Source: Escherichia phage vB_EcoM-Ro157c2YLVW | Sequence record: NC_050153.1 | Reading direction: 5' to 3' (one strand) | Length of the DNA stretch: 64,000 nt | Shown: piece by piece, positions 57,818 to 57,883 of the stretch | Layout of the letters: each line of letters begins with the position of its first letter | How positions within the stretch are numbered: the stretch's first letter is position 1 | The notes under the pieces: model-generated | What the model was told of the DNA's origin: nothing | Seen by the model: the letters and a program-made list of their open reading frames with translations, nothing else | The model's database searches: none | Position numbers and translations under genes: made by a program

Positions 57818-57883
57818 ATTGCTCTAATAATTCCATATTTTTAAAACGTGATGTACACTCATCACGTTTTTTATTAGAGCAAT
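57818..57883. promoter_or_regulatory. two inverted repressor operators flanking a perfect 11-bp hairpin terminator
   Basis: ATTGCTCTAATAATTCC (57818-57834, +), hairpin AAAACGTGATG-TACACT-CATCACGTTTT (57843-57870), ATTGCTCTAATAAAAAA (57867-57883, -). Confidence 0.6.

Follow-up and report, generated by a model that had tools for sequence, protein, structure and literature searches.

A 66-bp element situated between pmgQ and pmgR in Escherichia phage vB_EcoM-Ro157c2YLVW (NC_050153.1) probably serves as the regulatory junction of two co-directional transcription units, pmgN-pmgQ and pmgR-pmgS. In the explanation that best accommodates the data, a pair of operators for the C1 repressor encloses a hairpin that would terminate transcripts of the upstream unit in plus-strand RNA, and the same hairpin would house a nested promoter for pmgR with the loop as its putative -10 hexamer. 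Coordinates refer to the window, which is the whole 64-kb stretch of phage DNA that was analyzed (Table 1).

Genomic Setting of the Element

Phages P1, P7, SJ46, and other punaviruses share 99.3-99.8% identity with the region 57000-59000, which was also present in 687 plasmid records. By this identity the source phage is P1/P7-like. The c1 gene itself lies outside the window. The genes that neighbor the element are all on the plus strand in the order pmgN-pmgO-pmgP-ppp-pmgQ, the 66-bp element, pmgR, pmgS, pap, and the operator Op88 (59959), and the pmgQ stop codon ends 1 nt short of the first operator, Op86a. The pmgN-pmgQ unit has its own C1 operator, Op83, with the late promoter LPpmgL further upstream in the P1 annotation. 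The pmgR gene is essential, and its deletion results in unjoined heads and tails (PMC9024508; PMC10695390).

Table 1. Coordinates of features at the pmgQ-pmgR junction and in the pmgR-pmgS unit.
Feature	Coordinates	Strand	Sequence	Basis and remarks
pmgQ (hdmD in P7)	57115-57816	+		ORF list, P1 and P7 annotation; last gene of pmgN-pmgO-pmgP-ppp-pmgQ
Op86a (OpmgRa)	57818-57834	+	ATTGCTCTAATAATTCC	protein_bind 'phage repressor C1' in AF234172 and AF503408
PpmgR, GenBank prediction	57819-57847	+	-35 TTGCTC (57819-57824), -10 TAAAAC (57842-57847)	AF234172
Alternative pmgR promoter (candidate)	57831-57859	+	-35 TTCCAT (57831-57836), 17-bp spacer, -10 TACACT (57854-57859)	Weight matrix
Hairpin	57843-57870	+	5' arm AAAACGTGATG (57843-57853), loop TACACT (57854-57859), 3' arm CATCACGTTTT (57860-57870)	Perfect 11-bp stem
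Hairpin core	57847-57866	+	CGTGATG/CATCACG, then TTTTTTATT	7 bp, 4 G-C pairs
T6 run (candidate U-tract)	57867-57872	+		Sequence; shared with Op86b positions 12-17
Op86b (OpmgRb)	57867-57883	-	ATTGCTCTAATAAAAAA (minus strand)	C1 site annotated in P1 and P7
pmgR (shtA in P7)	57898-58116	+		ORF, P1 and P7 annotation; first gene after the element
pmgS (shtB in P7)	58118-59380	+		ORF, P1 and P7 annotation; second gene of the pmgR-pmgS unit
Terminator-like hairpin	59400-59433	+	AATGCTGGTGG...CCACCAGCATT + T7	Top match of standard terminator scan; strict site

The Element Is Bounded by a Known Pair of C1 Operators

The two ends of the element are operators that the GenBank entries of P1 and P7 have listed for around twenty years. 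The C1 protein_bind features in the P1 record coincide base for base with both sites, which are each labeled 'monovalent', and Op86a is noted as a site that 'controls expression of pmgR and pmgS' (AF234172). The P7 equivalents are named Op(sht a) and Op(sht b). As both sites are annotated in P1 and P7, the operator pair is already known, and the designation 'Op86' was absent from the papers listed by a full-text literature search. The consensus for the C1 operator of P1, of which there are 22 in that phage, is the 17-bp asymmetric sequence ATTGCTCTAATAAATTT (PMC8546580). Op86a and Op86b match positions 1-13 of the consensus exactly, and the tails TTCC and AAAA deviate from it as do those of other annotated operators. 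We infer that C1 would occupy both sites.

The exact 13-mer ATTGCTCTAATAA is found at 57818-57830 on the plus strand and at 57871-57883 on the minus strand, so that the full element reads ATTGCTCTAATAA TTCCATATTTTT AAAACGTGATG TACACT CATCACGTTTT TTATTAGAGCAAT. Allowing up to two mismatches, 13 copies of the 13-mer were detected in the window (five exact) compared to 1.96 expected and a maximum of six in 100 shuffles. The original prediction described a repressor operator motif on both strands with a spacing of 33 bp, a perfect 11-bp hairpin in the spacer, and an overlap of the second operator with the T-run of the hairpin. The inverted motifs stand, now as annotated C1 sites in both phages, but the spacing is revised: the 17-mers are 32 bp apart, the exact 13-mers 40 bp apart, and the operator centers 49 bp apart. 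The hairpin is present where it was expected between the operators, and the T6 run is located entirely inside Op86b.

The pmgR and pmgS Genes Form an Independent Early Transcription Unit

Expression data were taken from RNA-seq of P1vir in wild-type and dksA hosts (PMC8201110, Table S1). In the wild-type host, logFC values at 10 and 30 min were 7.39 and 11.77 for pmgO, 6.99 and 11.32 for pmgP, 6.95 and 11.49 for ppp, and 7.05 and 11.66 for pmgQ, compared to 9.02 and 10.81 for pmgR and 9.99 and 11.70 for pmgS (PMC8201110). The rise from 10 to 30 min was 4.2-4.6 log2 units for the five genes of pmgN-pmgQ, whereas it was 1.7-1.8 for pmgR and pmgS. This kinetic break falls exactly between pmgQ and pmgR, and the same break was evident in the dksA host (PMC8201110). 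The rise is independent of gene length and so is a safe measure. The absolute values express fold change relative to a baseline of zero and scale with gene length, and termination efficiency therefore is not derivable from them and read-through is only loosely bounded.

The kinetic break indicates that a separate early unit, and hence a promoter, begins between pmgQ and pmgR. Thus, pmgR-pmgS is an independent transcription unit with early kinetics whose promoter is in the element, and such kinetics would be anticipated of a promoter under C1 control. The element was found to contain no late-promoter motif (AAGTGACT... plus -10). The original prediction viewed the site as insulation between two early operons in divergent arrangement. 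Insulation between two transcription units fits the RNA-seq break at pmgQ and pmgR. The divergent arrangement does not hold, as both units are on the plus strand and it is the operators that face each other; nor is the upstream unit early, but instead mid to late, as reflected in LPpmgL and in the steep rise of its transcripts between 10 and 30 min. The element must also contain a promoter, which was missed in the original prediction.

The Hairpin Has the Properties of an Intrinsic Terminator

The hairpin between the operators begins about 27 nt past the pmgQ stop and is followed, 27 nt further on, by the pmgR start codon. Its calculated free energy is -8.5 kcal/mol for the 7-bp core and -12.9 kcal/mol for the 11-bp stem that includes the A-U extension. 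Folding of the plus-strand RNA from 57800 to 57900 yielded -27.9 kcal/mol with z = -5.6, and shuffled windows contain on average ~0.2 perfect hairpins whose stem is 11 bp or longer. A strict terminator scan was performed for perfect stems of 7 bp or more that include four or more G-C pairs, have a loop of 3-8 nt, and are followed directly by six or more T residues. The scan retrieved three sites on both strands of the 64 kb, whereas 40 dinucleotide shuffles yielded none. The pmgR-pmgS unit is flanked by two of these sites, at 57847-57866 and 59402-59426. The second is part of the hairpin at 59400-59433, which is positioned 20 nt past the pmgS stop and before pap, and is a candidate for the terminator-like site that closes the pmgR-pmgS unit. 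The third strict site is at 24181-24200 on the minus strand (CCTGCCAG..CTGGCAGG followed by T6).

A standard terminator scan did not report the hairpin at 57843-57870, even though the 7-bp core on its own falls within the definition used by that scan. The omission arises because the stem is extended through A/T pairs, which consumes four of the T residues. Among the ~50 kb of P1 annotation that was examined, including this site, no terminator feature is recorded, and no Rfam family was assigned to the element in a search of 4 kb. The sole Rfam match in the 4 kb was a weak one to GcvB (60002-60085, E = 0.2), which is 2 kb distant and probably is noise. A literature search found no mapping of 5' or 3' ends of P1 transcripts.

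Based on covariation and strand-specific wobble pairs, described below, together with the strict scan, the hairpin and U-tract very probably are an intrinsic (Rho-independent) terminator that ends pmgN-pmgQ transcripts. The terminator-like character attributed to the hairpin in the original prediction is strengthened by the same three lines of evidence.

The Hairpin Is Maintained by Covariation on the Plus Strand

The element was collected from 120 viral contigs, Cronobacter phage JK004, Salmonella plasmid pCVMN1543, and contigs that encode PmgR homologues. Ten lineages with PmgR homologues that are 72-84% identical were compared. Further viral scans added no lineages, but produced one known variant, one known lineage, and three chance matches in unrelated AT-rich phages; in a contig scan, PmgS by itself retrieved no more than two loci, which are near-identical.

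The element is exactly 66 bp in all ten lineages. Identity to the window is 65-94% for Op86a and 82-100% for Op86b, but only 56-72% for the middle 32 nt in which the hairpin is retained with different sequence. For comparison, identity is 54-61% at the 3' end of pmgQ, 36-56% between Op86b and the ATG codon, and 67-75% in pmgR. The stem arms AAAACGTGATG/CATCACGTTTT of the P1 type are replaced by GAAGCATGGTG/CGCCATGTTTT in JK004, by GCGTGGTG/CACCATGC in lineage L136, and by AAAACATGGTG/CACCATGTTTT elsewhere. In L132, where the element is upstream of 849, the stem adopts another register (CGGCATG...CATGCCG, -16 kcal/mol). A TATCAT hexamer and the T6 run are at unchanged positions in L132 despite the re-registered stem.

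Among 26 distinct sequences, 96.5% of stem cells were paired, none of the 11 pairs was invariant, and three pairs were changed on both sides. When the partner was slid by 1-3 columns as a control, pairing was 41-58%. The lineages are few and related, and the covariation counts accordingly are not independent events. Columns 29 and 50 display an A-U, G·U, and G-C series. Wobble combinations were distributed unequally with 27 G·U cells versus 4 A·C cells, so that pairing was 96.5% when the sequences were read as plus-strand RNA versus 88.5% as minus-strand RNA, and this imbalance indicates that the structure is read on the plus strand. Recurrent variants of the P1 type were wobble-compatible on the plus strand, whereas disruptive variants were singletons. 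In the other lineages, the tail on the minus strand is not rich in U. These points argue for structural selection on the hairpin as plus-strand RNA, and not as a protein-bound DNA palindrome.

The T-run also is conserved. Every lineage has T throughout columns 51-55 (57868-57872), and T occupies column 50 (57867) in 90% of rows or more. As the equivalent tail of Op86a that matches the T-run is variable across lineages, the conservation of the T-run exceeds what the operator needs.

Other differences among the lineages concern the operators. In L131, L136, and L139-L141, in which the element is ~95-30 nt upstream of the pmgR homologue, the operator cores are TTGTTC or TTGTAC instead of TTGCTC, and in L131 and L136 the same core change is present in both sites. 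The pattern suggests that operator sequence and C1 specificity may be drifting together in the five lineages. The P1-type copy in L135 (1390-1500 and downstream) has a damaged Op86b (TTATTAGAAACAAT) and a pmgS gene that is split into several short ORFs, and apparently is part of a decaying prophage.

The Hairpin Loop Is a Candidate -10 Hexamer

Two placements of the promoter within the element were compared (Table 1). In the alternative promoter, the -35 hexamer shares sequence with the 3' end of Op86a, the spacer corresponds to the 5' arm of the hairpin, the -10 hexamer is the loop, and the predicted start is at ~57865-57868. This candidate ranked first in all ten lineages with a sigma-70 weight matrix that is rough and was built from consensus frequencies. 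Outside P1, the -10 is TATCAT or TATTAT, and five of nine other lineages have TTTACT as the -35 with a 16-bp spacer, the remainder having TTTAAT, TTCAAT, or TTCATT. Scores in these lineages were 8.4-10.2, which are at about the 90th to 97th background percentile, but P1 itself reached only 6.4, near the background median, which is 5.8 for any 140-nt stretch. Within the loop, positions 1, 2, and 6 (columns 37, 38, and 42) are invariant in the form TAnnnT, whereas positions 3-5 vary.

The promoter predicted in AF234172 instead has its -35 hexamer within Op86a and would initiate at ~57854-57857 in the loop. The hairpin still would be the terminator of the upstream unit and Op86b would be a downstream operator at ~+11 to +29, so that this arrangement differs from the best explanation only in promoter position, and it explains the early kinetics of pmgR and pmgS equally. 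In its favor, the record predicts TTGCTC as the -35 hexamer both at Op86a and at Op88, with Op88 carrying the same module ATTGCTCTAATAA...ATTTTTAAAAC and the same prediction. However, the -10 hexamer lacks the key final T, and the promoter scored 5.2, which is below the background median. The hexamer also is replaced by TGAAGC, TGCGGC, or TGAGGC in other lineages and is conserved only as part of the stem. Both candidates thus are weak in P1 itself. Initiation from the GenBank position is judged to be unlikely: the predicted promoter probably is misplaced, with the hairpin loop a better -10 candidate.

Other Explanations for the Conserved Hairpin

A more distant alternative is that the promoter is upstream of 57843 and that the hairpin is included in the pmgR mRNA, either as an attenuator or as a 5' stabilizer of the pmgR-pmgS transcript. 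Retention of the plus-strand RNA structure by covariation, and the location of the hairpin 27 nt upstream of the pmgR start codon, would suit this role. Yet no credible promoter was evident upstream of the hairpin in any lineage, and no antitermination system is annotated for the pmgR-pmgS unit. Moreover, a hairpin followed by U6 would halt most transcripts, but at 10 min pmgR and pmgS rank with the more strongly expressed early genes. A leader function for the hairpin is therefore improbable.

The proposal that the two operators cooperate in looping or clamping the DNA to insulate two early, divergent operons, with the hairpin as part of the insulator, is slightly less probable again. The strict conservation of operator distance, with 66 bp in all lineages, is in keeping with cooperation between the sites, as is precedent at c1, where the Schuster laboratory reportedly described C1-mediated looping between distant operators. 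However, the fixed spacing is accounted for by the geometry of the promoter and hairpin, both flanking units are on the plus strand, and the kinetics of the upstream unit are not early. Distance, helical phase, and an oligomeric repressor all would bear on looping: the centers of Op86a and Op86b are 49 bp apart, or ~4.7 helical turns, a distance that does not suffice for a simple loop, and both sites are annotated as monovalent.

Finally, the perfect 11-bp palindrome could be viewed as a site for a dimeric protein or a cruciform, or the 66-bp unit with its bounding 13-bp inverted repeats as a small mobile insertion, but these suggestions were rejected as half-site sequences vary with only pairing conserved, wobble changes are tolerated on one strand only, the L132 hairpin is in a different register, and the supposed terminal repeats are a motif that is found singly at other annotated operators.

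A Model for Transcription Through the Element

The preferred explanation, with C1 operators, a plus-strand terminator, and a promoter nested in the hairpin, suggests the following sequence of events. In the lysogen, Op86a and Op86b each would bind one C1 monomer, aided by the corepressor Lxc, and together would silence pmgR-pmgS. With the loop as the -10 hexamer, Op86a would cover the -35 hexamer and Op86b the region from +1 to ~+17, and RNA polymerase would thus be blocked at the -35 and start site by the flanking C1. When transcription enters from pmgN-pmgQ, the hairpin and U-tract would form in the plus-strand RNA and end these transcripts. The pmgR-pmgS promoter, with its -35 at the 3' end of Op86a, the 5' arm as spacer, and the TAnnnT loop as -10, would initiate at the end of the 3' arm at ~57865-57868. 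Transcripts of pmgR would escape the terminator: under either placement of the promoter they start in or after the loop and so do not include the 5' arm.

It is tentatively proposed, in a stronger version of the model that may well claim too much, that the 66-bp module is put to three uses as the terminator of the upstream unit, as the core promoter of the next unit in which the 3' arm is the discriminator, and as an operator tail that also provides the first transcribed bases. If correct, only a few nucleotides would separate the end of one transcript from the start of the next, with a repressor clamp on both sides. UTP-sensitive reiterative transcription is a feature of the codBA and upp promoters. 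By analogy, initiation on the T6 run might add control of this type to the pmgR promoter.

With the operator pair already on record, the terminator and the relocated promoter plausibly are a refinement of the existing view. The discovery weight is small, and the element typifies compact but ordinary phage gene control. Nevertheless, it places pmgR, an essential head-completion gene, and pmgS in what appears to be a self-contained early unit flanked by two terminator-like sites that rank among the three strongest of the window. This organization would be useful in P1 engineering and in the annotation of hundreds of P1-like phage-plasmids, and offers a tidy example of terminator, promoter, and operator signals that overlap.

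Comparison with Known Systems

The closest counterparts are OpmgRa and OpmgRb of P1 and Op(sht a) and Op(sht b) of P7, which have the same sequence, orientation, and position between pmgQ (hdmD) and pmgR (shtA). There is no substantive difference between these sites and those studied here; the P1 and P7 records show the operators and predicted promoter, but not a terminator at this location. Within the window, P1 operator Op88 (OpmgT; 59959-59975, plus strand) is 2 kb downstream with the predicted promoter PpmgT and shares the 30-nt module ATTGCTCTAATAA...ATTTTTAAAAC with Op86a. Like the pmgR-pmgS unit, pmgT is C1-controlled with similar early kinetics. In contrast, Op88 is a single operator without the hairpin and T-run that Op86a and Op86b enclose. 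The shared module has the appearance of an operator-promoter cassette that was duplicated. In the pmgT leader, just 3' of Op88, a perfect hairpin of 9-10 bp, ACATGCCGCG..CGCGGCATGT, with a T-rich tail on the minus strand is located at 60008-60030 (-).

A second set of inverted operator copies is present at 43744-43771, with an exact match at 43744 (+) and a match with two mismatches at 43759 (-). From its map position, we take this pair to be the bivalent operator Op72a,b that precedes ban. Both Op72a,b and Op86a/Op86b comprise two inverted C1 sites that control one promoter. However, the Op72a,b sites are nearly back to back as one palindrome in which the 13-mer cores start 15 bp apart, whereas Op86a and Op86b are annotated as monovalent and have 32 bp between them that contain a candidate terminator and promoter core.

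A looser resemblance is seen in distant phage-plasmids of Shigella (NZ_CP026816) and Citrobacter (NZ_CP099368) whose PmgS proteins are about 20-23% identical. Directly upstream of the pmgS homologue is a strong, G+C-rich terminator hairpin followed by an AT-rich promoter-like stretch (L009, 2895-2930; L010, 2885-2915). The order of terminator and then promoter is shared with the element. The ATTGCTCTAATAA operator pair is absent from these phage-plasmids, however, and their terminator and promoter are placed next to one another instead of superimposed.

The hairpin also resembles the intrinsic terminators of E. coli and its phages, with which it shares a 7-11 bp stem that contains G+C, a 6-nt loop, U6 directly 3', an A-tract 5' of the stem, and a position just after a stop codon. 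It differs from these terminators in that its U-tract is shared with a repressor operator, and its loop and arms probably have a second role as a core promoter for the transcription unit that follows.
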